14,535 bases of DNA from a virus. Lineage: Duplodnaviria; Heunggongvirae; Uroviricota; Caudoviricetes. Shown piece after piece: positions 1 to 13,320 of the stretch. The stretch spans positions 1 through 14,535 of the IMG/VR virus record IMGVR_UViG_2534681705_000018. The stretch is one strand, 5' to 3'. Under the pieces are notes generated by a model. The model was not told the origin of the DNA. It saw only the letters and a program-made list of their open reading frames with translations, and did not search any database. The stretch's first letter is position 1. Each line of letters starts with the position of its first letter. A program made the translations under genes and the position numbers.

Positions 1-78
1 ATAAATCTCACTCTCGTTTTTTTTGATATCAAAATCATCTGTTTCAAAATCTTCCTCGTACTCAAAATGATCAGCCAT
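1..78 (-). CDS. 5' end of an unknown protein-coding gene running off the left edge; N-terminus MADHFEYEEDFETDDFDIKKNESEIY is strongly acidic
   Basis: ATG at 78-76 (minus) with AGAGGAG Shine-Dalgarno 6-7 nt upstream; frame stays open to position 1. Too short for the ORF track, so this is my own read. Confidence 0.3.
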   Translation of the reverse strand, partial: MADHFEYEEDFETDDFDIKKNESEIY

Positions 79-318
79 TTTTAACTCCTCTGGATAAATT
101 AAATCACAAATTTTTGTATTATAAATAACCGCATAAGCCAAATTATTTGAGATTAATAAAACATCACCAACTTCAATATCAACAAGACTTCTGTAACATG
201 TTTTACTAAATCCAATTACAAAATGAATGGACCAATATAATGATTTTTTGTCTAACACTGGAGCGTTTCCGTATTGGCAGACTGTGACTTTATCTAACCA
301 AAGATTCAATTCCCCTGT

Positions 319-684
319 TCATATTCTTATTAGTGGTTGAGCAGGGCTCAATACTCCATCAAATACTTTACCTACGTGCAAACGATTATATTTTAGTTCA
401 GGATGCTTTAGATTTAACGGGGAACTGGATAAACTGAGCCATTCCCCTATTAACCTTTCCGTTTCTGGCATTAAAGCCATCCCAGCGAGCTCAGATGAAA
501 TTAAGGGAAATATTTCTCCAAGCAATACCCATCCAGACCAGCTGCCACTCTCTTCTGCTATCGGTAACCATTTAGCACTAAATTCGGGCATTAATAATGC
601 AACATCTTCGCCATTTTCTTTCCAATTTTGAAAAGTGGTTTCAAACGTATGAGTGTTTCGATTTACTTTCCTCAGACCGAACAT
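319..684 (-). CDS. hypothetical 121-aa Trp-rich protein
   Basis: ORF-track ORF; ATG at 684 with AAGGA about 11 nt upstream; protein-like composition; no recognisable motif. Confidence 0.45.
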   Translation of the reverse strand: MFGLRKVNRNTHTFETTFQNWKENGEDVALLMPEFSAKWLPIAEESGSWSGWVLLGEIFPLISSELAGMALMPETERLIGEWLSLSSSPLNLKHPELKYNRLHVGKVFDGVLSPAQPLIRI

Positions 685-815
685 TAACTTTCATCCTTCT
701 GATCGTTTTCGAATTTGCTTTCATTTTCTTGCTCCTCATAAGGCTGATGTCGTTGTCCTTGTCGTTCATCTTGCTCAGTCAATACCCAACGTTGTGCTGT
801 AACTCATTATGAAAA

Positions 816-2426
816 CTATTTAATTCCCTCATCATTGATAAGGTTGGACATCTCTTTCAACATGAGAGTCATTGAAGCTTTCGACCAATTTAGCGGAATG
901 ATAGGGCTTGGCGCTTCATGCAAAGTTCCCGACTTGTGGATATAGTTATAGCTTTCGGGAAGTGCCATTTCAGGTACACTCCTGCCATTTGCACCAATCA
1001 TATTCTCGCCTGTTATTTGGGCCAATGATCTATTCATAAATTGCACTGAGTCATTCAAATACTCTTCCTTTCTTGATTCTTTATAAACAATTGCTGCTGA
1101 TTTTGCATACCATGAGTCAAAAAACCATTCTGCTTCTGTTGATGGAATGAAGCTCTTTTCTCTTTTCGCATGTGAATTTTGATCGGTATCGGTTTTAATA
1201 TCATTGAACCAAAAATTTGCCGACTGATAATTATCCTTCTCGTATCTTTTTATACCATACGGACCTGCTAGTTTTTTAACTATTTTTAGAACCTGCTCTT
1301 TTCTTCTGGTGTTTATCTTTGCAAGATTTGCAGGATAAATAACATTAAGTAAAGCCGCATCGGCTTCTCTGTAATGTTTATCTTTTTCCAGATAACCTGG
1401 GGATTCTCCCCCTAAATCAAGCTGTAACGTTATTCTTTCATAACCTTTATCTATGAGGTGGTTCAACCTCGTTGTTGAAAGAGGTTCATCCAGTTCATTG
1501 GCTTTAGCTTCGCGTAGTAAATCAGAGACAAAAACAGAGTCTTTCTTCGAGAGTAAGTTCGACAAACGTTCCAGTCCAGAGGTCACCAGTGCAACGGAAG
1601 ATGTGTTTAATCGGGCATCTTCTTCCCATGCTCCGGAATCTTCCATAACATAGAAATTGGCTTTATCCAGATAAGCAATCAGCAGCGCAACCGATTTTAA
1701 TCGGTCACCTTTTTGCCAATCTTCAGCGTTAATTGTATCAGTGTCGATTGCTTGTATAAGGAGATCAAGATAAAGACCTAACGCATCATTTTGTTTATGG
1801 TTCCACAGCTGCGGCTTGCCTTCTTCCTGCACATCTGCCATCACGGGGGAGTTGCTGTCAAATCGGATATGCACAACATTCATTTGCCCGGGAACTCCAT
1901 CCAGTCGTTTGGGGTTGCTAATGACGTCCTGCATTCGCTTAATCTGGTCGGGCGTAGACATATAATCCCACAGGGTGAGCAGAACCTTTTTTGCGGCTAC
2001 ACTATTTCCCTGATCTGATACTAATGCCATATAGCCCCATAAACTATCCCTCAGCCAGACAGCATCATAGTGGGTTTCTGCCGCTGTTTTGTCATCTTCG
2101 AAAGTAGAAGCAAGAATAAACGTTCCCCAGGGTTTCTCCGTCAACGTTAACTTTCGTGTGTTTTCTGTTAATGTTAGCAATCCTTGAATTTCGTCTTTGG
2201 TATAGTGGCTCTTTATTTCATTTTGTAATTTGGCTGAGTGAATCAAAAGACGATAATTAGGATACTTATCTGGATTTAACGATAAATAACTTTTATCTGT
2301 TGCTGCCCCCGTGGAATTAAGAATGTTAAATACAGATTCACTCGTCACTTCTGCCCCTGTCGCCTGGCATGTGCCGCACGAAAATATACCAGCGAGCAGA
2401 AGAGTTAATGCAGATTTCCCTTTCAT
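816..2426 (-). CDS. secreted glycoside hydrolase family 15 (glucoamylase-like) enzyme with N-terminal signal peptide
   Basis: ORF 816..2468; likely start at MKGKSALTLLLAGIFSCGTCQATG (ATG 2426; alternative ATG 2438). Matches recalled GH15 signatures: VWLRDSLWG (WxRDS), GKPQLWNHKQNDALG (GxPQ...D.AL) and SGAWEED (general-acid WEE). AT-rich gene unlike the rest of the window. Confidence 0.7.
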   Translation of the reverse strand: MKGKSALTLLLAGIFSCGTCQATGAEVTSESVFNILNSTGAATDKSYLSLNPDKYPNYRLLIHSAKLQNEIKSHYTKDEIQGLLTLTENTRKLTLTEKPWGTFILASTFEDDKTAAETHYDAVWLRDSLWGYMALVSDQGNSVAAKKVLLTLWDYMSTPDQIKRMQDVISNPKRLDGVPGQMNVVHIRFDSNSPVMADVQEEGKPQLWNHKQNDALGLYLDLLIQAIDTDTINAEDWQKGDRLKSVALLIAYLDKANFYVMEDSGAWEEDARLNTSSVALVTSGLERLSNLLSKKDSVFVSDLLREAKANELDEPLSTTRLNHLIDKGYERITLQLDLGGESPGYLEKDKHYREADAALLNVIYPANLAKINTRRKEQVLKIVKKLAGPYGIKRYEKDNYQSANFWFNDIKTDTDQNSHAKREKSFIPSTEAEWFFDSWYAKSAAIVYKESRKEEYLNDSVQFMNRSLAQITGENMIGANGRSVPEMALPESYNYIHKSGTLHEAPSPIIPLNWSKASMTLMLKEMSNLINDEGIK

Positions 2427-2734
2427 AAAATATTCCATCAATCGTTTGTTAAAAGCGTAGATAACCACTTATTTAACAACTTGAAAATAAGGTGTTTTAC
2501 CTGGGTTGTTACAAAAGGATTGCATTGCGTAAACGCTTTTTATTTACAACAAAATGGGGAAGTATTACGGCGATTGCGAAAAGTCTGAAGCGATTGAATT
2601 AAGATAATATAGAAAATCAGATACAGCAAAAATGGCAGATTGATCAGGTGAAGATAAATTGGAGCGGCGAAGGGAACAACACAACAAGCCACAAGACCAG
2701 TAATAAAGGCGCATTCGCGAGTTCTAAAATAAAT

Positions 2735-2758
2735 TCTATACACATTTCTATACACATT
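2735..2758. repeat. perfect tandem direct repeat TCTATACACATT x2
   Basis: Read directly at 2735-2746 and 2747-2758. Confidence 0.8.
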
Positions 2759-2770
2759 TATCACTCGCTT

Positions 2771-2850
2771 GGGGATTACACATCCCCTGTTAACCGTGAT
2801 CAAGCTGGTGGATGATCACGGATAAACCGATATGGGAATCCCCATATCGG
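2771..2850. promoter_or_regulatory. three consecutive perfect dyad symmetries: GGGGAT-N5-ATCCCC (2771-2787), CCGTGATCA-N10-TGATCACGG (2794-2821), CCGATATGGG-N4-CCCATATCGG (2827-2850)
   Basis: Inverted repeats read directly; non-coding; sits where composition changes from AT-rich cargo to element-like DNA. Confidence 0.6.
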
Positions 2851-2855
2851 CATCG

Positions 2856-2967
2856 CGTAGTTAATCGTAGTGGCTACCGTAGTAGCCTCCGTAGTTGAGT
2901 AGCAGGATGTAACCTGCCAGGAAGGAAATGATCGTGACTCGCCGTGACATGGCGTGATTAATCGTGA
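2856..2967. repeat. helically phased short direct repeats: CGTAGT x4 (2856, 2866, 2878, 2890) with embedded palindrome GGCTAC-cgta-GTAGCC, then CGTGA x4 at exact 10-bp spacing (2933, 2943, 2953, 2963)
   Basis: Read directly; the 10-12 bp phasing puts the motifs on one face of the helix, typical of multimeric protein-binding sites (integrase arm sites, TerS sites, iterons). Confidence 0.6.
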
Positions 2968-3000
2968 CACCAAACAAAAATCCTTACCCGTAGGCTTAAT

Positions 3001-3023
3001 GTAAGGCTTGGCTGTAGCCTTAC
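3001..3023. other. perfect 8-bp inverted repeat GTAAGGCT-N7-AGCCTTAC
   Basis: Read directly. Confidence 0.6.
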
Positions 3024-3035
3024 CGAACGCGCCGC

Positions 3036-3215
3036 TCACCGTCGCGGCCTGTCCGGTTTCCGCCACTGATACGGCCTCACATCATCATGCTGGTGGCGCT
3101 CCTGTTGCAGCACAACGGAAACAGGCGCTGAACACCTGTTAATTTTGCTTGCTGGTTGTTTGATTCCGGCAATGCTGCGGATCATCTCCAGCAAATCGGC
3201 TTCGGTGATGGTCAT
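3036..3215 (-). CDS. possible small ORF (59 aa, MTITEADLLEMIRSIAGIKQ...), unknown function
   Basis: ATG at 3215 with AAGGTG 7 nt upstream; stop at 3036-3038; not in the ORF track (under 60 aa); low support. Confidence 0.25.
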   Translation of the reverse strand: MTITEADLLEMIRSIAGIKQPASKINRCSAPVSVVLQQERHQHDDVRPYQWRKPDRPRR

Positions 3216-3245
3216 GATTTACACCTTAGGAAATCTTAGGGGGCT

Positions 3246-3518
3246 GGTTGACACTTTCCGGCTTAAGACCTTAATAAATCTTAATATCGTAGGTTGACAC
3301 ACTTGACACTTTTTCGGGAAAAACCTTAACAAAACTTAACCATCCCTGGCATTTCTAAGCATGGCAACTTGACACTTTTCGCTATTTTTTCGGCTTTTTG
3401 ACGTGGTAAATCTGGCGAAAGGCCAGTAATGGCGTGGCTTACAGCGAGGTTGACACTTTTTCGCGTTCAGAGTGTAAAGTGTCAACCTGGCAAGCTGCTC
3501 AACTTGACACTTTTTGAG
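3246..3518. repeat. array of six direct copies (one inverted) of about 14 bp, (G/C)TTGACACTTTT(T)CG
   Basis: TTGACAC at 3248, 3294, 3303, 3369, 3450, 3504 and inverted GTGTCAA at 3479; non-coding, directly 3' of the HTH gene at 3520-4047. Confidence 0.7.
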
Positions 3519-3519
3519 G

Positions 3520-4047
3520 TCATTGATGGCCTGATTTTTCCCACTCAGCCAGGGCGTTTAGTCCGGCTTCACTCCAGTTATCCAGCTCATCGGGACAATC
3601 ACCTGCAACATAGCAGAGCTCACAACGCAGCATACGAATTGCCAGCCTGGCATTTTCCCGAAAATCATACTGCTCAAAGTAATATTGCCCAGCATAATCC
3701 TCAAGGCAGATAGCACCATCATCAAGAAATTGCACTTCACAGCATAATTCCCCGGCTGCATCCTGCACACGCTGCTGTATGTCATCGTCCGTTACTGGTG
3801 CAGGGATTTTACCGTCTCTGGCCTTAACTGCTTTCCAGAACTCGCCCCACGTCATTTCCAGCGTTCTCTCTGGCCACATTTCAGAAACGGGGTTTTTTCC
3901 CTGTGCTGGTGGGCTGTTCCGCTGCTCTGTCGCTTCCACATCAATTTTTTTGCCAGACATGATCACTTCGCCTTTCTCGATCCAGTCGTAAACTGTCTGG
4001 CGGCTTACGCCTTTGTGTTTGGCATATTCTGCCTTGCTCATCAGCAT
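3520..4047 (-). CDS. HTH DNA-binding protein, 175 aa; N-terminus resembles lambda Nu1/terminase-small-subunit winged HTH; Cys-rich C-terminus; candidate packaging-redirecting or regulatory protein
   Basis: N-terminal KAEYAKHKGVSRQTVYDWIEKGE parallels recalled Nu1 KKQLADIFGASIRTIQNWQEQGMPV; C-terminal RCELCYVAGDC; ATG 4047 (or 4041) follows the upstream stop by 6 nt with GGGTGAG Shine-Dalgarno. Confidence 0.6.
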   Translation of the reverse strand: MLMSKAEYAKHKGVSRQTVYDWIEKGEVIMSGKKIDVEATEQRNSPPAQGKNPVSEMWPERTLEMTWGEFWKAVKARDGKIPAPVTDDDIQQRVQDAAGELCCEVQFLDDGAICLEDYAGQYYFEQYDFRENARLAIRMLRCELCYVAGDCPDELDNWSEAGLNALAEWEKSGHQ

Positions 4048-4053
4048 TATGAC

Positions 4054-4725
4054 TCACCCTTCTTTTTCCAGTTGAGCCAGCCGCCCGGATATTTCTTCCA
4101 GTTTTTCCAGGGCTGGCTTGCAGGCCGCATCAATAACATCCCGGACCATTCCGGCAAGCTGCTCTTCTGCTGTCGGCGTTGTTACTTCCACACCCGATGG
4201 TTTCCCTCCCTTATCCCATACACCCAGCGGTACGAGGGCAACGTGATCGATAAGAAATGGCGTACCCTCAATGACAAAATTGTCCTCGCCCATTACATCA
4301 GGAACTTCTGCCCCACCGGACGCACCACAAAACACAACCGACGGGCTGGTGGATACCTCCCCCCGGGCTTTCTGGATGTAATCGATGATTTCCTGCCCGT
4401 AAATCCGGCATACGCCCCACACCTCGTCATCGCGAATATACGGCAACATAACGGTGCCAATAATGCGCGACCGTTCGCCCACGTCTTCAATGGTTTTGCC
4501 TTCGGGATGGTCGATAATGACGGGTACTCCGGCGCAACGTTCCAGGAACTGCGGATTGAGATAAGTTTGCGGTGAACGCCAGACAAATTCTTTTTCTTCG
4601 GCGCGGTAGGCCATTCCGGTTCCTGTGATACGCAGGTTAACCAGCCACATGTTGGAGAACTGATAAGGCGACGGTAGCTGACCGTCCCGAATCTGCTTCG
4701 CCGCCTCAATTTCTGTTAAAAGCAT
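4054..4725 (-). CDS. hypothetical 223-aa protein with coiled-coil C-terminus
   Basis: ORF-track ORF; same operon and strand as neighbours; no motif recognised. Confidence 0.55.
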   Translation of the reverse strand: MLLTEIEAAKQIRDGQLPSPYQFSNMWLVNLRITGTGMAYRAEEKEFVWRSPQTYLNPQFLERCAGVPVIIDHPEGKTIEDVGERSRIIGTVMLPYIRDDEVWGVCRIYGQEIIDYIQKARGEVSTSPSVVFCGASGGAEVPDVMGEDNFVIEGTPFLIDHVALVPLGVWDKGGKPSGVEVTTPTAEEQLAGMVRDVIDAACKPALEKLEEISGRLAQLEKEG

Positions 4726-4789
4726 AATGTTATCCGGTTATAAGCAATAAGCCCCGCCAAATCCGGCAGGGCTGAACTCAGCACGTTTT

Positions 4790-5368
4790 TCATGCCCCCG
4801 CGAGGCTTGCAGTGTTAATTTTGACCAGGCGACGGGGAGGGATTTTGAAGGCGTTCAGCCAGACGTTCGGATCGCCCTGATATTCAGTAATACGACGACC
4901 AGCTTCATCCATTCTTACGGTTTTACCCAAATGGCCCGGCGTGTTTTCCACGGCCCACTGAGCACTTTCCTGAGCAGCCTTGTAAATCTGATCTTCCAGC
5001 ACCGCCAGCGTTGCAGAATCTGAAACGGAACGAATATCCACATCACTGAATTTTTTAGCCAGCTTCTGTGCGCCAATTAATGCACGCTTGCGGTAATCCA
5101 TCGACTTTTCACCAGCAAACGGGGCCGGAGCTCGACGGCCCATATTGCTGTATGCGGAATCCGCTTTAGCCTGGGCTTCTGCCAGTGAGGATTCATCTTC
5201 GACTGACGCGACGATGTTTTGATTAGCGTTATCCTCTTTTATGAAATCCTGTGCGGGGATCGCATTCAGAATTTCGATAATCTCCTGCGGAGTGCTGCCC
5301 TGCGACTCTGACAGAGCGTTAACCACCTCCATCAGTTTTAATCGCAAATCTTCTTTGCTTGCTGGCAT
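4790..5368 (-). CDS. hypothetical 192-aa protein
   Basis: ORF 4790..5377 opens on GTG; in-frame ATG at 5368 has a better Shine-Dalgarno (GAGAGGTGG). Confidence 0.55.
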   Translation of the reverse strand: MPASKEDLRLKLMEVVNALSESQGSTPQEIIEILNAIPAQDFIKEDNANQNIVASVEDESSLAEAQAKADSAYSNMGRRAPAPFAGEKSMDYRKRALIGAQKLAKKFSDVDIRSVSDSATLAVLEDQIYKAAQESAQWAVENTPGHLGKTVRMDEAGRRITEYQGDPNVWLNAFKIPPRRLVKINTASLAGA

Positions 5369-5407
5369 TTTTACCACCTCTCTTTTTTCACCAAAAAATC
5401 ACGACCA

Positions 5408-5587
5408 TCAGGCCGGACGTTCTACGGGATAAAGCGCCCGCTGCATTAAACGCCGGGCGACCTCATGAATGCTCGGAGCAATCCCCAGCGGAGAATTGCG
5501 GCGTTCCTCGTCCTGGATGCGCTGTAATGCTTCAATCTGATCACGAGCGAGTAAAACGGGTTTCACGCTGGCTTTTCTCATAGTCAT
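5408..5587 (-). CDS. small 59-aa protein (MTMRKASVKPVLLARDQIEALQRI...), possible small DNA-binding regulator
   Basis: ATG at 5587 with AGGAGA Shine-Dalgarno; first gene after the tandem terminators; assignment is tentative. Confidence 0.45.
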   Translation of the reverse strand: MTMRKASVKPVLLARDQIEALQRIQDEERRNSPLGIAPSIHEVARRLMQRALYPVERPA

Positions 5588-5605
5588 ATCTCCTGAACAA
5601 AACAA

Positions 5606-5700
5606 TGATTATGATTGCACAAACTGAAATGACGATCTACATCGTTGCAATTTATGAAACGATAACGCATGATGATCGCGTTCTTCCCATTGACTTCAAT
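5606..5700 (-). promoter_or_regulatory. promoter/operator region for the 5587->3520 operon with repeated ACGAT/ATCGT dyads and a CATAAT -10-like hexamer
   Basis: Between terminators and the first gene of the next operon; dyads GACGATctacATCGT and AACGC-N8-GCGTT read directly. Confidence 0.4.
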
Positions 5701-5704
5701 CACC

Positions 5705-5745
5705 TGAAAAACAAAGCCCGCAACACTTCTGGCTGCGGGCTTTTT
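5705..5745 (-). terminator. second, bidirectional intrinsic terminator
   Basis: 8-bp stem AGCCCGCA/TGCGGGCT (5715-5722, 5734-5741), 11-nt loop, T-runs on both sides. Confidence 0.6.
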
Positions 5746-5753
5746 ACTGGCAC

Positions 5754-5777
5754 AAAAAAGCCGGGAAAAATCCCGGC
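5754..5777 (-). terminator. Rho-independent terminator right after the PerC-like gene
   Basis: 7-bp GC stem GCCGGGA/TCCCGGC with 4-nt loop, followed on the minus strand by a 6-T run. Confidence 0.7.
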
Positions 5778-5782
5778 CTCCG

Positions 5783-6070
5783 TCACTGACTGCAATTTTT
5801 CGATCCAGGGTATTTCCTGAATGCCTTACCATTGGGCTGATGTAATCCCATCCCGGCATGTGCCCGGCTGATGGTTTCGCGCATCTCCCCGAAATTATCC
5901 TGCCGTGCTGGTGGGCGTGCTGCCTTGCGGATACATTCCGCGCGACGTTTTGCCGCCTGTTCCCGTGCCTTGTCATCATTCGCCAGCATGATGACCTCAG
6001 CCCACCGCGCCGCCGCTCTCCGGTACAGACCACGCGCTTCCAGTGCTTCCGCTTTGCTGTCGTGAATCAT
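5783..6070 (-). CDS. PerC/Pch-family transcriptional activator-like protein (95 aa)
   Basis: AEALEARGLYRRAAARWAEVIM matches the recalled PerC-family core (AEELE.KGLWRRAAARWLEVM); ATGA start/stop overlap with the upstream gene. Confidence 0.55.
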   Translation of the reverse strand: MIHDSKAEALEARGLYRRAAARWAEVIMLANDDKAREQAAKRRAECIRKAARPPARQDNFGEMRETISRAHAGMGLHQPNGKAFRKYPGSKNCSQ

Positions 6071-6609
6071 GCGCCTGTTTTCTCCCTGGCTGCCCGGCGC
6101 TGACGTTTGCGCTTCTCATTCAGCGCTACCAGCCGCGTTTCTGCGTCCTGTTGTTCCTGTGGTGTCACCTCGCCGCACGGCTGGCCTTTCAGGTCGTAGC
6201 GTACCCCACCAGCCATTAAGGCGCGGTAATAGCGCGGACACTGCGCATAAGATGCCAGCGTCGCACGTAATGCCCCTGGCCCGAATGCCAGCCCCCTGAC
6301 GGCGAGATCCTGCATCAGGTCGTCGAATATCCCCACCTTAAGCGGCTTCGGTGCTTCCCGGCTGAATAATTCAGGCCACAACTCAGTGAGGCGGTTAACG
6401 CGCCTGCGGTTTTTGCGCTGGCGCTTGGTCATATGCCGCCACGGTGTCGCCCCTGTGGGCTTCTGCTGCGCTTTCTGGTTACCGGGCATCACTTTATGCG
6501 CCGACGTGGTTTTATCCTGCTCCTGTGCCGCCTGCGTCGTTTTCTGCGGCGTGCCATAAATGCCTTTCGGTTTTCTGTTAATGGTCAGCTTAGTCATGCT
6601 TTGCCCCAT
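6067..6609 (-). CDS. ProQ/FinO-domain RNA-binding protein with a basic N-terminal extension
   Basis: LTELWPELFSREAPKPLKVGIFDDLMQDL ... YYRALMAGGVRYDLKGQPCGEVTPQEQQDAETRL parallels recalled ProQ N-terminal domain ([22 protein letters not shown] ... RVDLDGNPCGEL); likely true start ATG 6597. Confidence 0.65.
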   Translation of the reverse strand: MGQSMTKLTINRKPKGIYGTPQKTTQAAQEQDKTTSAHKVMPGNQKAQQKPTGATPWRHMTKRQRKNRRRVNRLTELWPELFSREAPKPLKVGIFDDLMQDLAVRGLAFGPGALRATLASYAQCPRYYRALMAGGVRYDLKGQPCGEVTPQEQQDAETRLVALNEKRKRQRRAAREKTGA

Positions 6610-6937
6610 CGTTTTTACTGATTATTTCATGCCCGGAACTTTCATCTACCGGATACCACGCAAATGATCCAGGTTCATCAGAAAGAATGAATTTTGTGTT
6701 TGGCAAATACATGCATTCGTAAAAACCATCTTCCTGATGATACGGTGCCATTCCATACTCACCAGTAAGAATCGGTAATATTTCAGAATAAATTTCTGAA
6801 TCACCAGAATAAAACACATCACAAATCGCCCATGCTGCAATCGGACTATACCAGTCGTTGCCATTATCATTCCTGAATTTTGCCCACCAACCCTGAACCG
6901 CTGGCGAAATATTTTTGGGTATAGCTTCAAGAAACAT
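6590..6937 (-). CDS. hypothetical 115-aa Trp/Tyr-rich protein, first gene of the ProQ/PerC operon
   Basis: ATG 6937 with strong AAGGGGG Shine-Dalgarno; 3' end overlaps ProQ-like start. Confidence 0.55.
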   Translation of the reverse strand: MFLEAIPKNISPAVQGWWAKFRNDNGNDWYSPIAAWAICDVFYSGDSEIYSEILPILTGEYGMAPYHQEDGFYECMYLPNTKFILSDEPGSFAWYPVDESSGHEIISKNDGAKHD

Positions 6938-6987
6938 ACAACCCCCTTTGCAACTCTATTTCTATAATTTCGTGATAAAAATTCCAA

Positions 6988-7290
6988 TTATTCACACTAT
7001 TCCATTTTGATTGTGAACAGTCGTGAATAGTTAGTGAACAGTTTTTTAATAACTGTTCACTATGTTTTTTAGTTTAAAATCATATGGTTATTTTGTTTCA
7101 GTGAACAGTTGAACAGTTACCCCCTATAGAATTTAATTTGCAGTGAAAATGATTCACTGTTACAAGTTACAATGCGTTTTAAAAGTTTTAGCCGAAACTG
7201 TTCACGGCGTTCATTTCGTCGATGAATCCAGTAATGACGCAGCTTTTAGAGGTGAACACTACTGTTCACCACTGTTCACCACTGTTCACT
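6988..7290. repeat. replication-origin-like iteron region: about 10 direct and inverted TGTTCAC(C) copies, an AT-rich spacer, and a perfect tandem ACTGTTCACC x3
   Basis: Direct copies at 7054, 7199, 7263, 7273, 7283; inverted at 7013, 7034, 7101, 7252; palindrome TAGTGAACAGTT/AACTGTTCACTA (7032-7062). TGTTCACC is the P4 alpha-protein type I iteron as I recall; location just 3' of the primase gene. Confidence 0.65.
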
Positions 7291-9058
7291 TTTCATGGAT
7301 TTTTGGCACAGCGGGTAACCATTCATTAGCACTGTCAGCCAGCTCCATGTTGTAGCGCATTCCGACATTGGTCTTTGCCTTCTTATACTCAGCCCCATAT
7401 TCTTTCATCACTTTTGGGAAATCTTTGCCAAAATTAGTTAGATTTAATGGCTTATCGAAACCATAAGCATCCATATATGCAAGATATGCATGGTAAAGAT
7501 AAATTCGAGGGGCTCTTGGATATATATTCAGGTTTCCCATGAACATTCCTACAGCTTCACCAAGTTCGACAATATGGTTACAAAAAGCATATAGCGGATC
7601 AGTATGGCGTTTTACTTCCATTGCTTCTTCACCATCACGTTGCTCGAGCAGTAATGTTCTTGCTTTTTCGGGATCTGAAAAATTTACCAACAGCCTACGG
7701 ACTATTACCGGAATTTCCGCTGCAATTTTTTTGGGTAAACATGTGTCCTTGTTTTCTTCCGCTATCGGATTATTGAACTGAAAAATAACCCTACGGCGTG
7801 AAATACCTCCCGCTCTTTCTGTAAAAACCATCGGTTTATTATTTGTTATCAAAACAACTGAGCGTAAGACAGTGGTGTATCTTTTTTCATATTTCGGGTT
7901 AATTTGCAGAGGATCCCCACCTGTTATAGCTTTAATACCATTACCTTCACCAAAATATTTAGGTTGGTCCGGTAAAATAATCAGACTTTTACCAACTAGT
8001 TGCTCACGTCCACCAGCATCATCTAACGCTTTCATATCACTGCCTGCGGTGTTCTGCTCACCCGCCAACATTCTGGCAATTTGAGTAAACATACTTTTAC
8101 CACTTCCACCTTCGCCAGTTGCTTCAATGAATAATTGCCAGTCGTAGCGATTAGCCAAAACCATAAACAGAGCAGCACATATCCGCTTCATCTTTGATGA
8201 ATCGTATCCTGCTGCATGTGACAGCCAACGATGAAAATGGGGCGCATGGTCATGAATATTTTCACCAGGCGCAGGTGGCGTATAATAAATTCCATTATGC
8301 GAAGTGATCCAGTGCTCTGGTGAATGAGGTAAAAATCTACCACTTGTTATGTCATAAACTCCATTTTCAAAAGGTATTATGGTGTCACTCTGTTCTCTCA
8401 TTACGGGTACAGATATTTTTAAAGCATCAACCGCATTACTAATTGCCCGCTTACTGAAATTTGTCTTGTTTTTTTCGTAAATTGATACCATTTTACGACT
8501 CAACTCCATATCAGATATTTTTTCCCACACTCCAGAACAGTATGCATAAGCAAAATTGTTACCAGGGTGAACAGCTATTTCCTCAAAGCATTCAGCCAAA
8601 AGTGAAGCTCGCTCGTTATCCGCCATTCTGGAAAGAGAGATTTTGTGTTTTTTCTCAGTCCTTCCTGACAGAATATCCCCGCGCTCTGCCTGTTCGCGGA
8701 TCCGTTGCAGGTAATCGCGCCAGTTCTCCGGTTCCCGGTCGGTGATGCCTTTGTATAATTTCGCCTCCTGTACGCCAGCCAGCGCCAGCTTTTCAGCGAT
8801 AGCATTGATCTGGATTGGTTCGATCTCCCCCGCGAGATAGACACGCGCAAAGCGGCGTTTCTCGTCAATAATGCGGATATTCGCCAGGTCTGCCAGTTGC
8901 TTTGGCCCCAGGTAAACAGGTGGTACGTTATCGCCGTGTTTTCGTCCTTCGCTTTCAATCCAGTGTTGAGCATGGGAGTAAGCGTCCGTCCCGGCAAAAA
9001 TGATTACCTCGGTGAATTTATCCTTCGGCTGATATTTTAAATTCGGTGCGTTTTTCAC
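7286..9058 (-). CDS. P4-family primase / D5-like SF3 helicase replication protein (590 aa)
   Basis: Walker A GEGGSGKS in mid-protein; overall organisation of phage/plasmid primase family; GTG start at 9058 overlaps upstream stop (GTGA). Confidence 0.8.
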   Translation of the reverse strand: MKNAPNLKYQPKDKFTEVIIFAGTDAYSHAQHWIESEGRKHGDNVPPVYLGPKQLADLANIRIIDEKRRFARVYLAGEIEPIQINAIAEKLALAGVQEAKLYKGITDREPENWRDYLQRIREQAERGDILSGRTEKKHKISLSRMADNERASLLAECFEEIAVHPGNNFAYAYCSGVWEKISDMELSRKMVSIYEKNKTNFSKRAISNAVDALKISVPVMREQSDTIIPFENGVYDITSGRFLPHSPEHWITSHNGIYYTPPAPGENIHDHAPHFHRWLSHAAGYDSSKMKRICAALFMVLANRYDWQLFIEATGEGGSGKSMFTQIARMLAGEQNTAGSDMKALDDAGGREQLVGKSLIILPDQPKYFGEGNGIKAITGGDPLQINPKYEKRYTTVLRSVVLITNNKPMVFTERAGGISRRRVIFQFNNPIAEENKDTCLPKKIAAEIPVIVRRLLVNFSDPEKARTLLLEQRDGEEAMEVKRHTDPLYAFCNHIVELGEAVGMFMGNLNIYPRAPRIYLYHAYLAYMDAYGFDKPLNLTNFGKDFPKVMKEYGAEYKKAKTNVGMRYNMELADSANEWLPAVPKIHEK

Positions 9059-9345
9059 TTCTTACCTCCCGCAACCAACATTGCCCGGATTTTTTTAATA
9101 TTCGTGGCTGCACGTCTCGCCACCGCCTGTTGTTTGTTTTCCACCAGAATAAAATCACGCTCAAACTGACGGCGCGGCATTACGCAGTCATATTCGTAAG
9201 CCTCACGGCGGTAGGTGATATTGCCTGGCGTAACGTGACGAATAACCACTCGTCCCCCACGTCTGGTGTCGCGGTAAATATCTCCGTGTCTGATTTCAGG
9301 CCGAGCGGGGCCGCTGGCAGTAAAGCCAGAATTTTTCTTTTTCAT
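9055..9345 (-). CDS. hypothetical 96-aa basic protein, coupled to the primase gene
   Basis: ATG 9345 with AGGAAA upstream; stop overlaps primase start. Confidence 0.5.
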   Translation of the reverse strand: MKKKNSGFTASGPARPEIRHGDIYRDTRRGGRVVIRHVTPGNITYRREAYEYDCVMPRRQFERDFILVENKQQAVARRAATNIKKIRAMLVAGGKK

Positions 9346-9349
9346 GGTT

Positions 9350-9550
9350 TTATTTTCCTGTCAGCAGTTCCGGTTTTATTTCCGCACGAATACAGAGTTC
9401 AGAAAAAAATTCAGGAGAACCAACAATCTCATTACTTTTCAGTCGGCATTGTGATTTCACTTTTCCTTTATCCAGGTAAACCAGTATGCGTCCGGTGAAA
9501 TCATCTGGCGCACTCAGGGTAATTGTCATTGTTGCTTGCTGATTATCCAT
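9350..9550 (-). CDS. small 66-aa protein with one copy of an FTGxxLVxxxxGxV motif; paralog of the gene at 9543-9908
   Basis: PDDFTGRILVYLDKGKV; start overlaps upstream stop by 8 nt. Confidence 0.5.
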   Translation of the reverse strand: MDNQQATMTITLSAPDDFTGRILVYLDKGKVKSQCRLKSNEIVGSPEFFSELCIRAEIKPELLTGK

Positions 9551-9908
9551 GATTCACCCCCTGAATAACCTGATAACCGCAACTGGTCAGCAATTCGATA
9601 AATTCCGGCAATGTGCCGAAACAGTAATCATCACGCAGACGTTCGCGGGATACTTCAACGCCGTTTTCGTAGTGACTCACCATGCGTCCGGTAAAATGCA
9701 GATCATCATCGTGATGGCACGTTAACGGCTTAATCAGTCGCGCACGTTCTGCCAGTTCCAGCAATGCTTCAACGCTTCCGGCAATTGCACCATCCGGCAG
9801 GTTGTAATTACGCACTATGCGCCCGTTCTCCACATGGACCAGTAGCTGCCCGGTAAATTTCTCGTCAAACTGAATGCGGTTAAGGTCGGTAAGTGACAGG
9901 TTAATCAT
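9543..9908 (-). CDS. 121-aa protein carrying two tandem copies of the same small domain
   Basis: FDEKFTGQLLVHVENGRIV and LHFTGRMVSHYENGVEV; ATG 9908 overlaps upstream stop. Confidence 0.55.
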   Translation of the reverse strand: MINLSLTDLNRIQFDEKFTGQLLVHVENGRIVRNYNLPDGAIAGSVEALLELAERARLIKPLTCHHDDDLHFTGRMVSHYENGVEVSRERLRDDYCFGTLPEFIELLTSCGYQVIQGVNHG

Positions 9909-10104
9909 GGCGTACCTCCTGACGAATACGGGCGGCGAATACCATCACGCAGCCATCAGGAGATTGCTGGCGTGCTTCCTGTTCGCTGGTGGCCTCGATG
10001 TGAATCACGCGCGGTTGTGCCGTGCTCAGAGCGATAAAACGCCAGATGTATTTATTCAGGTTGTGCGAGTCCCGCCCTTGCGGGTGTGTGGTATGATTTC
10101 TCAT
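9901..10104 (-). CDS. small 67-aa protein, first gene of the leftward operon; tentatively Icd/Kil-like
   Basis: ATG 10104 with GAGGT Shine-Dalgarno; IWRFIALSTAQ...VMVFAARIRQEV resembles my recollection of Icd-like proteins (unverified); in frame with the C-terminus of the 402-aa track ORF. Confidence 0.4.
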   Translation of the reverse strand: MRNHTTHPQGRDSHNLNKYIWRFIALSTAQPRVIHIEATSEQEARQQSPDGCVMVFAARIRQEVRHD

Positions 10105-10297
10105 AGCTACCTCGATAATCTTGCTATCGTTGGTGGTTAGAAGCTCTGCGAGTGGTAACGACACTTGCGGGGCTTTGCCTTTAAGGTGCAAGTCACCTTT
10201 GAGGGTTATGCTACTTTTAGGTGACTTGCACTTCAAGCCTTTTTTTATTTTTTTTTCTACGTATACTGAACGCCACCTAACAGTAAGGAGGCCAGTA
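10105..10297. promoter_or_regulatory. divergent promoter/operator region with 13-bp inverted repeat AGGTGCAAGTCACCT (10184-10198) / AGGTGACTTGCAC (10219-10231) and a T-rich tract (10241-10257)
   Basis: Read directly; lies between the leftward operon and a rightward gene with AAGGAGG Shine-Dalgarno; candidate -35/-10 (TTGAAG-N17-TAGCAT) on the minus strand overlaps the repeat. Confidence 0.55.
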
Positions 10298-10477
10298 ATG
10301 CCAACGGGTACAACCAACAACAAATCACAACAAAAAACGGCTAGAATCCCTCTAGAAGTTTTAAGCGAAATGAATTTGGTCAAAGAGGAAAACGAAACAG
10401 ACGCGCAGTTTATCGTTACAGCCATGCGTGGCGAGATCAAACGCCGCCAGCGCCGCAAGGCCAAAGAACAGGAGTAA
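10298..10477 (+). CDS. small 59-aa basic protein, possibly ribbon-helix-helix-like; candidate element repressor
   Basis: Near-consensus Shine-Dalgarno AAGGAGG 6 nt before ATG 10298; strand-helix-helix pattern (ARIPLEV / LSEMNLVKEEN / AQFIVTAMRGEIKRR); only clear plus-strand gene in the element. Confidence 0.5.
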   Translation: MPTGTTNNKSQQKTARIPLEVLSEMNLVKEENETDAQFIVTAMRGEIKRRQRRKAKEQE

Positions 10478-10534
10478 CCATCACCAGCGCCGTGGTGTGA
10501 GGAACTACGGTGCATCGTTTTACAGGGCAGCGCC

Positions 10535-10714
10535 ATGACCAACAAAGAATCAACCAAAACACCATCACCAACTCGTAAGAGACGACGCAAAAATATAGCG
10601 CATGAACATGAATCAGAAAGATTCGCACCTTGTTCGTTTGCTCTTGAGAAATTCCTTAAAGAGCACAGGAAAAAGCTCTCGTTGCAAACCTTGGAACGAA
10701 CCAAATCTGACTGA
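10535..10714 (+). CDS. possible 59-aa Lys/Arg-rich ORF downstream of the RHH-like gene
   Basis: ATG 10535, weak Shine-Dalgarno; followed by a plus-strand terminator; not in ORF track. Confidence 0.3.
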   Translation: MTNKESTKTPSPTRKRRRKNIAHEHESERFAPCSFALEKFLKEHRKKLSLQTLERTKSD

Positions 10715-11109
10715 TCACATTGCCCACCAGCCGCAAATGTGGCATTGTTGGTGATGCGTTCAAGTATGTAGCTTTTCCACTGGCGGCTCTCTGCGGTCGC
10801 CTTTGTTTTATCCAGAACGAAATCAGACATCAGATTGATCAGCACCTGGCGACCTGACAAAATCGCATCAGTCGCGCCACCAGCAAAATTTTTTGCTTTC
10901 CGGACAGCGTGGCCAACGATATTTTGCAGCAAAATATTCTGCATTTCTGGCGTGCTGTGGCGACGGTGATCAGCGCCTTCACATTGAACGAACTTGTCGC
11001 TAAAATTCACCCACATAGCAAACATCGCGGTGCTGTAGGTAATTCGTTCACAAAGGCGCTCCGGCAACGGGGCGCTTTCTCTTTTTGTAACGGTCAGAGC
11101 GTTACACAT
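10715..11109 (-). CDS. N-terminal part of the 402-aa track ORF (9901..11109); plausible gene of unknown function whose true 3' end is unresolved
   Basis: ATG 11109 overlaps the AntA stop (ATGTGTAA); first ~130 residues protein-like, but the middle of the 402-aa frame looks non-coding and is antisense to the plus-strand module. Confidence 0.3.
10782..10809 (+). terminator. candidate Rho-independent terminator for the rightward transcript
   Basis: GGCGGC-tctctgc-GGTCGCC stem-loop followed by TTTGTTTT. Confidence 0.4.
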
Positions 11110-11950
11110 GGCTGTTTTCCTCCATGCGACGGGCTAACCAACGCTGCGAAAGACGAATTAATTCAGCCTTCCGCTGGTGGTAGTCCTGGCCTAACTCAAT
11201 CAGCGTGATATTGCTCTGCTCAAGGTAAGAAAGGTGCTCAAGCTGCAACGTGCTCATGTGGTCGCGTGGTTCGCCTGTAATGCCGTTCGCCAGTGCCCAC
11301 TGTTTTGCAGTCATGCCACCCAGCACGATACGCGCCAGCATGTTCGCTTCCGTGGTGTAGTGGTGCTGGAGTGTGTTTTTACCCAGTTCAGCCCGGTACG
11401 CCTCCAGCGCGGCACACATTGGCTTAAAGTAGCTGGCAACTGTGATACGGGCTTTCAGTTCCCGGCGTAACGCTGCGGAACGCACTGGCGCTACCTTGTG
11501 TAGCTCCTCCTCGCATTTGATAAAGTACTGGCGAACGGCGCGGCCCTGTTCGGTACGTTCGACCATCGCCAGTTCTTTCGCCATGTTCGTGGAGATCAAA
11601 TAGTCTTCACTGCGACGATCACCGCCGCGCTTTGTTGTCCAATCAAAATCAAACTGTTCAATATTTACACTTTGGTTCCCCCGTTTCGGGGAATCAAAGT
11701 ACAAATTTTCTACAACTTCAAAATCCACGCCATTTTTAAATCCGTACTCATCAATACGTCCTTTAATCCAGGTAGTGAAATCACGGCCTACCCCGAGCGC
11801 CTTATGCAACGCTCTGGCGCTAACAATATTGGTTTCACGCCCGCCAATAACGCCGGAAATAACCGGGATAATTTCGCCAAAATTTTGCAGATTCTGGTTT
11901 TCAGGCCGAACGAAGCCCTGCCCCTGTACGGGCGTTTTTCGCAGTTTCAT
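11102..11950 (-). CDS. phage antirepressor, AntA/AntB-type N-terminal domain (282 aa)
   Basis: IPVISGVIGGRETNIVSARALHKALGVGRDFTTWIKGRIDEYGF matches recalled AntA domain pattern; AGGAG Shine-Dalgarno before ATG 11950. Confidence 0.7.
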   Translation of the reverse strand: MKLRKTPVQGQGFVRPENQNLQNFGEIIPVISGVIGGRETNIVSARALHKALGVGRDFTTWIKGRIDEYGFKNGVDFEVVENLYFDSPKRGNQSVNIEQFDFDWTTKRGGDRRSEDYLISTNMAKELAMVERTEQGRAVRQYFIKCEEELHKVAPVRSAALRRELKARITVASYFKPMCAALEAYRAELGKNTLQHHYTTEANMLARIVLGGMTAKQWALANGITGEPRDHMSTLQLEHLSYLEQSNITLIELGQDYHQRKAELIRLSQRWLARRMEENSHV

Positions 11951-12028
11951 AAAAACTCCTGCTATCGAATTAAGTTACTTTTATTTGCTGGTGGATAGCT
12001 GGGGGCTTCTGGCCCCGTAGCCATTTAA

Positions 12029-12226
12029 TCAGGTAGCTGTTCCGCGTGATTCAGCAATACGCTGATTAATCCACTCGTCAATTTCACTCTCAACGAAAGC
12101 AATCGCTCGCGAGCCAATTTTAACTGATGCAGGAAATTTACCTTGCCCCATAAGGCGATAAATCCATGCCTTGCTATATCCAGTTCTACGCTGAACTTCC
12201 GTTAAACGAATAAGCGTATTTGACAT
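12029..12226 (-). CDS. alpA: AlpA/Vis-family phage transcriptional regulator or excisionase-like HTH protein (65 aa)
   Basis: IRLTEVQRRTGYSKAWIYRLMGQGKFPASVKIGSRAIAFVESEIDEWI is the typical AlpA-family winged HTH; GAGGT Shine-Dalgarno; family-level assignment only. Confidence 0.8.
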   Translation of the reverse strand: MSNTLIRLTEVQRRTGYSKAWIYRLMGQGKFPASVKIGSRAIAFVESEIDEWINQRIAESRGTAT

Positions 12227-12294
12227 ATATTTACCTCATAACGTCTACTCAATTTGACGAGGTAATCATGGCACAGAAATAACGAATATTTTCA

Positions 12295-12444
12295 TACCCT
12301 CAGGCCTAATGGTAATCGGGAATATTTTTACCCTAAGGGTAATAGTAAAATTGATGGGAAAGCATACAAAAATACCCTAAGGGTGAGGTCTGATTACCCT
12401 TAGGGTGAGACGCGAACAAAACATGAGATACCACTAGGGTAAGG
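12295..12444. promoter_or_regulatory. array of five copies of palindromic motif TACCCT(A/T)AGGGT(A/G) immediately upstream of alpA
   Basis: Copies at 12295 (degenerate), 12328-12343, 12373-12385, 12394-12410, 12429-12444; each an inverted repeat TTACCC-N3-GGGTAA. Confidence 0.7.
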
Positions 12445-12446
12445 CT

Positions 12447-13193
12447 TCATCGTTTGATAGGACAGGCGACAAGCTCAATAGATGCGGCCTGTCGGGAGGT
12501 AAAACCTCGTTTTTCAAGCTCAGTAGTAATCGCGCCCTGGTTTCCCCTGGTGGCGCGCTCATTTTCCGGATCGTAATTGGCCCACTCTCTGTTTCTAATC
12601 TCGATAGCCAGATACAATGGGTCATCATCTCTGTATTTATTTAATAGAATTGGACGTTCGCTTTCGAGTTTGCGGATTTGCTCTTTAAGTGAAGAAATTT
12701 CCGCAAGTAACACTTCAATATTCTGTTCATCATCCAGAAACTCATTATCAACCACATCAGAAGTTGGTAGAGTTATTTCACTTAATGGTAAAAATAAATC
12801 AATGCCTATTTTCTCTGCAAATTCTTTAAGTTCTGCACGACGAAACCCATGCTTATCAAAAAGGCTTGCCGACCATCTTACATCACAATTTTGAAAAGGT
12901 GCGAATAATGCTATAGGCACACTATTTCTTTCACGAATAACTTCCAGGAGGTCTGTTAAAGTAGGGGCACTATTATATTGATTGGAAAGATCGACATATG
13001 TTGATTCAATAGTACCGGCAATACCTTGCTTAACCCATTCAGGAAGTTCAATCGCACATTCTTTCAAGTAAAGAAAATCTGCAATCTGTGAATAACTAAC
13101 ATGCGGTTGATGTAATTGAATACGAGTTATCAACTCCCTCAGGCTAATAAACTCCCACTCCCTTGCTTTAAGCACTTCGGCAATATCAATCAT
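12447..13193 (-). CDS. hypothetical 248-aa protein between integrase and alpA, coiled-coil near C-terminus
   Basis: Track ORF 12447..13274 opens on GTG; ATG 13193 has GAGGTG Shine-Dalgarno 7 nt upstream; no motif recognised. Confidence 0.55.
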   Translation of the reverse strand: MIDIAEVLKAREWEFISLRELITRIQLHQPHVSYSQIADFLYLKECAIELPEWVKQGIAGTIESTYVDLSNQYNSAPTLTDLLEVIRERNSVPIALFAPFQNCDVRWSASLFDKHGFRRAELKEFAEKIGIDLFLPLSEITLPTSDVVDNEFLDDEQNIEVLLAEISSLKEQIRKLESERPILLNKYRDDDPLYLAIEIRNREWANYDPENERATRGNQGAITTELEKRGFTSRQAASIELVACPIKR

Positions 13194-13320
13194 ACGCACA
13201 CCTCGGCGTCCTCTGTAGTGGTGGCTGTGCCAGCCCGCAGAGGTGTACGGGTTTTCAGGAGCGACCCTAGACACAGCCTTTTCTTAATCGCTCAAAGTCT
13301 ACTACTGTATACTCAACCAG

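Follow-up and report, generated by a model that had tools for sequence, protein, structure and literature searches.

A probable terminator-insulated boundary and a conserved pair of operator-like sites ahead of the packaging-like operon of an Escherichia coli phage-inducible chromosomal island

The 14,535 nucleotides of the IMG/VR virus record IMGVR_UViG_2534681705_000018 (positions 1 to 14,535, hereafter the window) carry an E. coli phage-inducible chromosomal island (PICI) of the EcCICFT073 type, in which every long open reading frame (ORF) lies on the minus strand. This work deals with the gap between the PerC-family gene that closes the upstream unit of the island and the gene of a 57-aa protein (p57) that opens the downstream one. 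Within this gap there are two tandem hairpins (T1 and T2), a promoter-like site and two conserved 15-bp dyads (op1 and op2). A first-pass annotation of the same DNA had already described two strong hairpin terminators right after the PerC-like gene, one of them bidirectional, followed by a promoter-like region with ACGAT/ATCGT dyads, and had proposed that the PerC/ProQ module is regulated independently of a packaging-like operon. The gene content on both sides agrees with that description, with clear PerC and ProQ/FinO domain matches upstream (see Table 1) and a protease/scaffold-like pair plus a small-terminase-like helix-turn-helix (HTH) protein downstream, and so do the hairpins, whereas the control elements of the promoter turned out to be others than those first named.

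The first hairpin, T1, begins 5 nt after the PerC stop codon (TGA at 5785-5783, minus strand), and a spacer of sequence AGTAAAAA leads from it to T2, whose stem AAAGCCCGCAGCC...GTTGCGGGCTTT is followed on the minus strand by GTTTTTCAG (a tract also given as GTTTTTCAGG and as TTTGTTTTT). When compared with 200 dinucleotide shuffles, the 91-nt stretch comprising T1 and T2 folds at -41.4 kcal/mol against -25.7 +/- 3.3 kcal/mol in the shuffles (z = -4.8), with none of the 200 being as good. The same was true for T2 alone (-20.9 kcal/mol, z = -5.3, 0/200), and T1 alone reached -18.3 kcal/mol (z = -3.1). A consensus terminator scan lists T2 alone (12 pairs, 7 of them G-C); T1 is supported by its folding and by a separate scan for hairpins followed by T-tracts. 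On the plus strand, the T2 stem runs into the T-run TTTTTACT (also given as CTTTTTACTGG), whereas T1 has no T-run in that direction. In this regard, the A-tract at the 5' side and the T-tract at the 3' side of T2 result in a hairpin plus U-run on both strands, and T2 is therefore bidirectional and T1 one-directional, as had been anticipated for one of the two. Both elements show a G+C-rich hairpin with a U-tract, a location just past a stop codon and a pairing that is kept despite sequence change (see below). Altogether, these hairpins are real, strong and evolutionarily maintained intrinsic terminators, at which termination is probably efficient.

Loci related to the window were collected in three different ways: six E. 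coli loci through BLAST, 27 IMG/VR contigs through the T1 sequence, and more than 100 contigs through the op-repeat pattern. After dropping chance matches in coding repeats, about 95 satellite-sized contigs were kept. The 27 loci found by the T1 pattern and the six found by BLAST, which were fetched without the op motif, make up an unbiased sample of 33. In the ~95 contigs the op pair is always located 2.4-5 kb downstream of the D5 primase and DUF4222 genes and 30-70 nt ahead of the first late gene. These contigs fall into several sequence families: family A corresponds to the window's type, families B and D start with a 68-aa protein followed by a lambda-E-like capsid gene, and families C, E and H start with a p57 homologue. 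Family B has no PerC gene and many family D loci lack it too, and no ProQ/FinO gene occurs in either B or D. A species-level scan with the strict op pair returned Escherichia ruysiae alone, plus ~11 likely chance matches in unrelated taxa, and the cassette is thus essentially an Escherichia feature. One further locus is worth describing, the 58-kb IMG/VR contig L068, where tail-like phage genes and a strong terminator are directly followed, at 10098-11260, by the op pair, a p57 homologue and a homologue of the 195-aa protein; the contig would be either a satellite inserted beside a prophage or a phage carrying the module.

The whole T1-T2 block can be aligned across families A, B and D, which points to homology, and its invariant columns are GCCGG and the sequence that pairs with it, the T-run and the A-run, and the T2 base (CC and GGG). 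With respect to op1, families A and D alike place T1 at about -120 to -100 and T2 some -85 to -52 away. T1 is one bp shorter in family D (GCCGGA/TCCGGC), and the upper stem of T2 has been wholly replaced and yet remains paired, from GCCCGCA/TGCGGGC in family A to GCCCGATAAG/CTTATCGGGC in family D, the latter including EcCICFT073. Moreover, loci L026 and L028 show a compensatory double change from G-C to A-T at the base of T2. The second hairpin of family B (TCCCCCGG/CCGGGGGA) has a poor T-run. The same T1 follows a single-stranded DNA-binding protein (SSB) gene instead of PerC in loci L004 and L005, and it is therefore the boundary, rather than PerC, that the terminator block accompanies. The anatomy of the boundary is in this way kept across satellite families that differ both in the upstream gene (PerC or SSB) and in the downstream module, and the alignments indicate that the T1-T2 block is ancestral and has been maintained.

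Alternatively, the hairpins might be mainly RNA elements, either with T2 as a 3' handle for the FinO/ProQ protein of the island, or with T2 terminating a short plus-strand RNA whose divergent promoter would lie in op1. The FinO/ProQ gene is indeed only 300 bp upstream of the hairpins, terminator hairpins flanked by single strands are ligands of FinO-domain proteins, and T2 has a suitable form, with a 5' A-tract kept in families A, B and D, a GC stem and a U-tail. In addition, the plus strand carries TTGCAA-17-CATGAT at 5645-5673, from which an RNA of ~70 nt ending at T2 would result. We nevertheless regard this alternative as very improbable. Families B and D, which lack the ProQ/FinO gene, conserve the T1-T2 block just as well, and the divergent -10 is not conserved, being replaced by CCGATC in family D and CCGTGG in family B (as read by eye). 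A search of the whole window against Rfam at a permissive threshold gave nothing real in the region, the match to ncr1175 (a model of two terminator hairpins) staying below threshold at 32.1 bits against a gathering score of 60, and the 129 nt from T2 to the p57 start codon show no fold beyond that of shuffled sequences (z = -0.2 and -0.4).

Beyond T2, the first-pass annotation had proposed that the next operon has its own promoter-like region. A sigma-70 promoter-like site is present there (TCGTCA-16-CATAAT), although it is a weak one: the whole window contains 14 sites of this quality against 22 in shuffles, and a match of 9/12 carries no statistical weight alone. More informative are the two dyads, op1 and op2, which conform to the 15-bp motif TT(T/G)CA-N5-TGCAA and start exactly 30 bp apart. 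Perfect copies of this motif occur three times in the window against 0.26 expected, and the pair was found in 33/33 loci of the unbiased sample, perfect in 29 and with 1-2 mismatches in the other four, its position being unchanged. Instead of dyads, the sites may equally be described as four hexamers (TTTCAT, TTGCAA, TTKCAN and RTGCAA) whose centres are 9, 21 and 9 bp apart. The left half-site of op2 makes a good -35 in families B and D (TTGCAA/TTGCAC), 16 nt from TAAAAT/TATAAT, and in the window and family H op2 occupies the spacer that separates a weak -35 from CATAAT/TATAAT. Most families also show a possible second promoter, made up of the left half-site of op1 and a TATCAT immediately ahead of op2; it is not seen in the window, which has CGTCAT there. 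In every family op2 overlaps the core promoter. As the op sites cover the core promoter from -35 to -10, this geometry fits repression better than activation. The region probably holds a promoter, with transcription presumably starting near the promoter-like site, and the conservation of the op dyads suggests that they are protein-binding sites. The third perfect copy of the motif (TTTCAGATTCTGCAA, 5011-5025, minus strand) lies within the ORF of the 195-aa protein, and 16 related loci retain it at +634/+640 relative to op1, either as an auxiliary site or just as part of a conserved coding sequence.

The ACGAT/ATCGT dyads, which had been proposed as the control elements of this promoter, had a different fate. 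They do exist in the window, as the ACGAT-ctac-ATCGT dyad between op2 and op1 and a second, looser pair at 5659-5680, and three such pentamers are concentrated inside 32 bp (5632-5663), a local density that could speak for an operator of the downstream operon. However, the 29 copies of ACGAT in the whole window are at chance level (26.4 expected). In a set of 71 distinct related control regions, 2.8% retain the first arm and 14% the second, and both arms are present in 1.4% (1/71), which is the window itself; some perfect 5-4-5 dyad occupies this position in 7%. One arm is already lost in the 99%-identical L001, and the commonest family-A sequence, that of the closest relatives, reads AATGATGTAGATCGT. 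Such comparative data already contradict the operator reading of these dyads, which we judge extremely improbable.

Table 1. Features of the window, in the direction of transcription of the island (-, minus strand; RBS, ribosome-binding site)
Feature	Coordinates	Strand	Details
Tyrosine integrase	13321-14535	-	
int-alpA RNA motif (Rfam RF02996)	13210-13277	-	47 bits vs gathering score 35.8; between int and alpA
AlpA, 65 aa	12029-12226	-	PF05930 HTH alone
AntA-type antirepressor (antA)		-	
402-aa ORF		-	Icd-like C-terminus
DUF4222 protein, 96 aa		-	
D5-type primase	7286-9058	-	
ProQ/FinO-domain gene	6067-6609	-	Pfam PF04352, E = 8e-24; 4-nt overlap with PerC start
PerC-family gene	5783-6070	-	Last of upstream (replication/regulation) unit; PF06069, E = 2.2e-32; RefSeq annotation of the 99%-identical L001
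T1, intrinsic terminator	5751-5778 (stem 5778-5759)	-	GGCCGGGA-tttt-TCCCGGCT, 8 pairs, 4-nt loop, then TTTTTTGTG; one-directional
T2, intrinsic terminator	5704-5745	both	A-tract 5745-5741; 12-13 bp stem 5743-5713
op1, conserved dyad site	5645-5659	-	TTTCATAAATTGCAA
ACGAT-ctac-ATCGT dyad	5632-5645		In 15-bp spacer between op2 and op1; not conserved
Sigma-70 promoter-like site	5608-5635	-	TCGTCA 5635-5630, 16-nt spacer, CATAAT 5613-5608; 9/12
op2, conserved dyad site	5615-5629	-	TTTCAGTTTGTGCAA; between promoter-like -35 and -10
p57 gene (57 aa)	5408-5581	-	First in downstream operon; RBS AGGAG 5594-5590; ATG 5581-5579
Rest of late module	3520-5377	-	195-aa protein, 223-aa DUF2213 protein, 175-aa HTH protein

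A candidate protein for the op sites is encoded right behind them. The AlphaFold model of p57 (pLDDT 84) matches ribbon-helix-helix (RHH) DNA-binding domains, with the predicted beta-alpha-alpha fold of this group and an N-terminal strand, VKPVLL, nearly invariant in homologues. The layout typical of RHH autorepressors is found as well, the repeated sub-sites op1 and op2 overlapping the promoter of the operon that p57 opens. Families A, C, E and H, as well as L068 and L129, have p57 homologues in the operon that follows the op pair. No sequence-level relation to solved RHH proteins was detected, nor any match in Pfam, PHROG or NCBIfam. The role of p57 as the binder of the op sites is a tentative proposal, to which we give somewhat less than an even chance.

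Taken together, the region is probably a terminator-insulated boundary between early and late genes, with a separate, operator-controlled promoter for the latter, a reading that we hold as a whole, boundary and promoter together, with moderate confidence. According to this model, transcripts of the upstream unit (alpA, then primase, ProQ/FinO and PerC) would end at the tandem Rho-independent terminators T1 and T2, the second of which would also stop antisense transcription. About 50 bp beyond T2, a weak sigma-70 promoter would drive the packaging/interference operon, and the two op dyads, three helical turns apart and overlapping that promoter, would control it, more likely through repression than through activation. 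In the window's family the most likely binder would be p57 acting as an RHH autorepressor. The existence of two independently regulated transcription units, as suggested in the first-pass annotation, is a reasonable inference from this anatomy that the comparison of loci strengthens, with read-through across the terminators being possible.

Several observations weigh against this model. T2 has decayed in loci L002, L024 and L029, and family C lacks it, retaining a T1 with a weakened U-tract that abuts the promoter, which indicates that the tandem arrangement is not obligatory. The promoter match of the window is just 9/12, and the best -10 position relative to op2 varies between families. Regarding the op pair itself, most IMG/VR loci that have it were fetched with the op pattern, and it is therefore the 33-locus subset that offers a fair test of its conservation. 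As for the binder, families B and D, including EcCICFT073, keep identical half-sites but have as first gene the 68-aa protein, whose N-terminal strand is GVSVYIS. The model of this protein (pLDDT 71) shows strands and then two helices and retrieves no RHH folds, and its alignment with p57 is collinear but not significant (hhalign E = 0.12). The same sites standing before a different first gene in B and D suggest that the binder may be something common to all families.

A factor shared by all families, either a host regulator, a late-timing protein of the helper phage, or the island's own PerC or DUF4222/RgdR protein, is in fact a serious rival to p57 as the binder of the op dyads, even if we find it rather unlikely. 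The half-sites are invariant whether the first late gene encodes p57 or the 68-aa protein (phrog_3255), and DUF4222 and the primase are the sole proteins common to nearly all op-pair loci. With regard to host regulators, families A, B and D have a Fur-box-like stretch overlapping the -10, with 13-14/19 matching positions (5601-5619, minus strand, in the window); this match is just at the 95th percentile of shuffles and probably reflects AT-rich promoter sequence. None of nine host consensuses (Fur, LexA, CRP, FNR, IHF, ArcA, CytR, PurR and Cra) scored above the 95th percentile of shuffled sequence, Fur, LexA and CRP just reaching it in one to four families each. A factor from the helper is disfavoured, as lambdoid helper phages time their late genes through Q antitermination and not through a promoter activator. 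PerC is also unlikely because it is missing from family B and many D loci. AlpA was considered as well and appears unlikely, the alpA promoter bearing a different palindrome (ACCCTTAGGGT). Finally, RgdR (99 aa, ECs1581/C1493) alters host gene expression, although its binding to DNA was reported as weak, of low affinity and non-specific (PMC3378721), and it occurs in all analysed E. coli PICIs according to Fillol-Salom et al. (PMC6092414). The 96-aa DUF4222 protein of the window is presumably its counterpart.

A more radical alternative would leave the two halves co-regulated: the island would be one long AlpA-dependent operon, and T1 and T2 conditional barriers that a modified RNA polymerase would cross by processive antitermination. 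Gram-negative PICIs are indeed described as being transcribed in a single direction, with AlpA as the activator needed for induction (PMC6092414; bioRxiv 2022.09.08.507074), and a Pseudomonas aeruginosa protein that is also named AlpA is a Q-like processive antiterminator able to bypass tandem lambda tR' terminators in E. coli (PMC7969949). In that protein the HTH is found at about residues 128-142, and an N-terminal segment, which is required, forms a ring in the RNA exit channel (PMC9371919). The AlpA of the window, with 65 aa and the PF05930 HTH alone, lacks such a segment. The Pseudomonas AlpA and lambda Q systems resemble the island in the AlpA name and HTH family and in having terminators where a regulator could act, but the terminators of the island close an operon instead of standing in a promoter-proximal leader. 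Furthermore, the ACCCTTAGGGT palindromes upstream of alpA are unlike anything at the late promoter, a conserved promoter-operator cassette past the terminators would be superfluous if transcription simply crossed them, and no literature was found tying a PICI AlpA to antitermination. We consider this alternative improbable, and keep the insulated boundary with its own promoter as the preferred explanation.

The closest known counterpart is EcCICFT073, the prototype E. coli PICI (Fillol-Salom et al. 2018, 2019), which is the same type of element and has the same boundary: a PerC stop, T1 (AGCCGGAGCAATCCGGCT + T6), T2 (A7-GCCCGATAAG...CTTATCGGGC-T4) and, ~50 bp past T2, op1 (TTTCATAATTTGCAA) and op2 (TTGCTCAAAATGCAA), 30 bp apart, followed by the late genes. 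The CFT073 boundary region folds at z = -4.4. Its late module is a different one, with the 68-aa protein and lambda-E-like capsid and decoration genes in place of p57, the protease-like pair and the small-terminase-like protein of the window. The leader of EcCICFT073 also has an extra 14-bp hairpin with a T-run, missing from the window's family (L151 404-435 in CFT073; also present in family D). This hairpin, located past the TATAAT and ahead of the RBS that serves the first late gene, folds at z = -5.6, and its arms co-vary between loci (TCATAAC/GTTATGA vs TCAGGAC/GTCCTGA). Its full form would occur only in RNA coming from upstream, acting as a third read-through terminator, or it would be a leader attenuator if the promoter were further upstream. 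The terminators and op sites of EcCICFT073 were not described in the literature we found, the word 'terminator' appearing 0 times in PMC6092414, PMC6739421 and PMC11773190, and no transcript maps were found. As a separate observation, RefSeq annotates major capsid and head decoration proteins directly after the control region (L151 463-2071, CFT073), in contrast with the description of EcCICFT073 as an element without capsid morphogenesis genes (PMC6092414).

Other systems share parts of this organization. The RHH autorepressors of P22 immI (Arc, Mnt), CopG, ParD, omega and PutA resemble the late promoter of the window in having a small predicted RHH protein first in its operon and repeated sub-sites over the promoter, a likeness of predicted fold and layout only; the two dyads 30 bp apart are a layout of their own. 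The RHH domain of PutA would recognise GTTGCA, a hexamer that is also present on the opposite strand of op1 (GTTGCAAT), although no confirmation of this recognition sequence was found in the literature. In the satellite P4, P2 Ogr or P4 Delta activates the late promoters Psid and PLL, which also switch on a capsid-size/packaging operon apart from the replication genes. Their TGT-N12-ACA dyad (at ~-55) is not present in 5584-5790, however, the sole match of the window being at 13697; no gene for an Ogr/Delta zinc-finger protein was seen in the window, and the sites described here cover the core promoter. Operon I of the staphylococcal PICIs (SaPIs) is a LexA-controlled packaging operon (Ubeda et al. 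2007, cited in PMC6092414), and it resembles the present case as a packaging/interference operon with its own repressor-controlled promoter, apart from the circuit of the master regulator. There is no LexA box (CTGT-N8-ACAG) here: the best match is 10/20 in the control region of the window and 13/20 elsewhere, which is the level of shuffles. The island also differs in its Gram-negative host, its unrelated genes and its operators.

The assignment of the window to the PICIs rests on its genomic distribution and gene content. An 801-bp query spanning the gap was found in the chromosomes of 188 out of 5,426 complete E. coli genomes, never on a plasmid, and the gap region gave no match in either the phage or the plasmid collection, all of which identifies the element as a PICI. 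In a 99%-identical relative the island is located between abgR and smrA. Among the features published for Gram-negative PICIs (Fillol-Salom 2018, PMC6092414), int, alpA, a primase-rep with an iteron origin of replication (ori), genes in one direction and the absence of lysis or tail genes are found; the published size is ~12-15 kb, and the ends of this island lie outside or at the edge of the window. The ori occupies 7012-7290, between the primase and the next gene, where an AT-rich core that contains a palindrome with 15-bp arms (7032-7062) is flanked by two inverted sets of GTGAACAGT iterons, at least 10 in total, a layout matching the one described for Gram-negative PICIs (PMC6092414). An origin within the PerC-p57 gap can be discarded, as the iterons are placed elsewhere. 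A coding explanation for the gap was also rejected, with open frames on both strands in family A alone that are broken in the other families. Some E. coli genomes are annotated within the 801-bp query with a 'NUDIX hydrolase' or an extra 'hypothetical protein' (RefSeq records H9-H12).

Some additional observations concern the remaining genes of the window. The ProQ/FinO protein matches both the FinO and ProQ models of NCBIfam, in each case below the cut-off. In the late module, the 195-aa and 223-aa DUF2213 proteins both match a protease/scaffold-like PHROG, and the 175-aa HTH protein resembles either a small terminase or Rpp. The former two (4054-5377, minus strand) correspond to the C-terminal and middle parts of a single 545-aa PHROG (6216, head maturation protease-related) with the gene order swapped, and between their genes, within the late operon, there is a terminator-like hairpin of 10 pairs (7 of them G-C) with a poor T-run (4750-4773, minus strand). 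No lambda cosN was found in the window. At the far end of the island, a 550-aa ORF (816-2468, minus strand) may be an accessory gene, its glycosyl-hydrolase-15 match being weak (E = 7e-5, right at the gathering score). In the 402-aa ORF, the C-terminus bears the PHROG label 'transcriptional repressor', which was dismissed, as NCBIfam gives instead a family of cell-division inhibitors. The int-alpA RNA motif is overlapped by a probably spurious ORF of 275 aa. Upstream of alpA, at ~12290-12410 (minus strand), there are three or four ACCCTTAGGGT(A) palindromes, a different set from the late-promoter sites and a plausible target for AlpA or for a helper-derived inducer.

Going one step further, Gram-negative PICIs might have a second, so far undescribed checkpoint of induction, where the capsid/packaging-interference operon would be shielded from AlpA-driven early transcripts by T1 and T2 (plus, in EcCICFT073, the third hairpin, which would form in read-through RNA alone) and kept off by a repressor at the op sites (the 57-aa RHH protein here), and would be released by a helper cue other than the one acting on alpA. 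We regard this extension as unlikely. The operator pair is specific, conserved and apparently unreported, whereas the kind of boundary is an ordinary one. No general principle is changed by these results, which are nonetheless relevant for the engineering of PICIs as delivery vehicles. Moreover, the two hairpins, the two 15-bp sites and the 57-aa protein offer short targets for the study of how a satellite times its interference with the helper. The PICIs of Gram-negative bacteria are now described as one-directional elements switched on through AlpA, and the conserved boundary, which the experimentally used EcCICFT073 also has, suggests that their early and late genes may be timed separately, as happens in phages, P4 and SaPIs.

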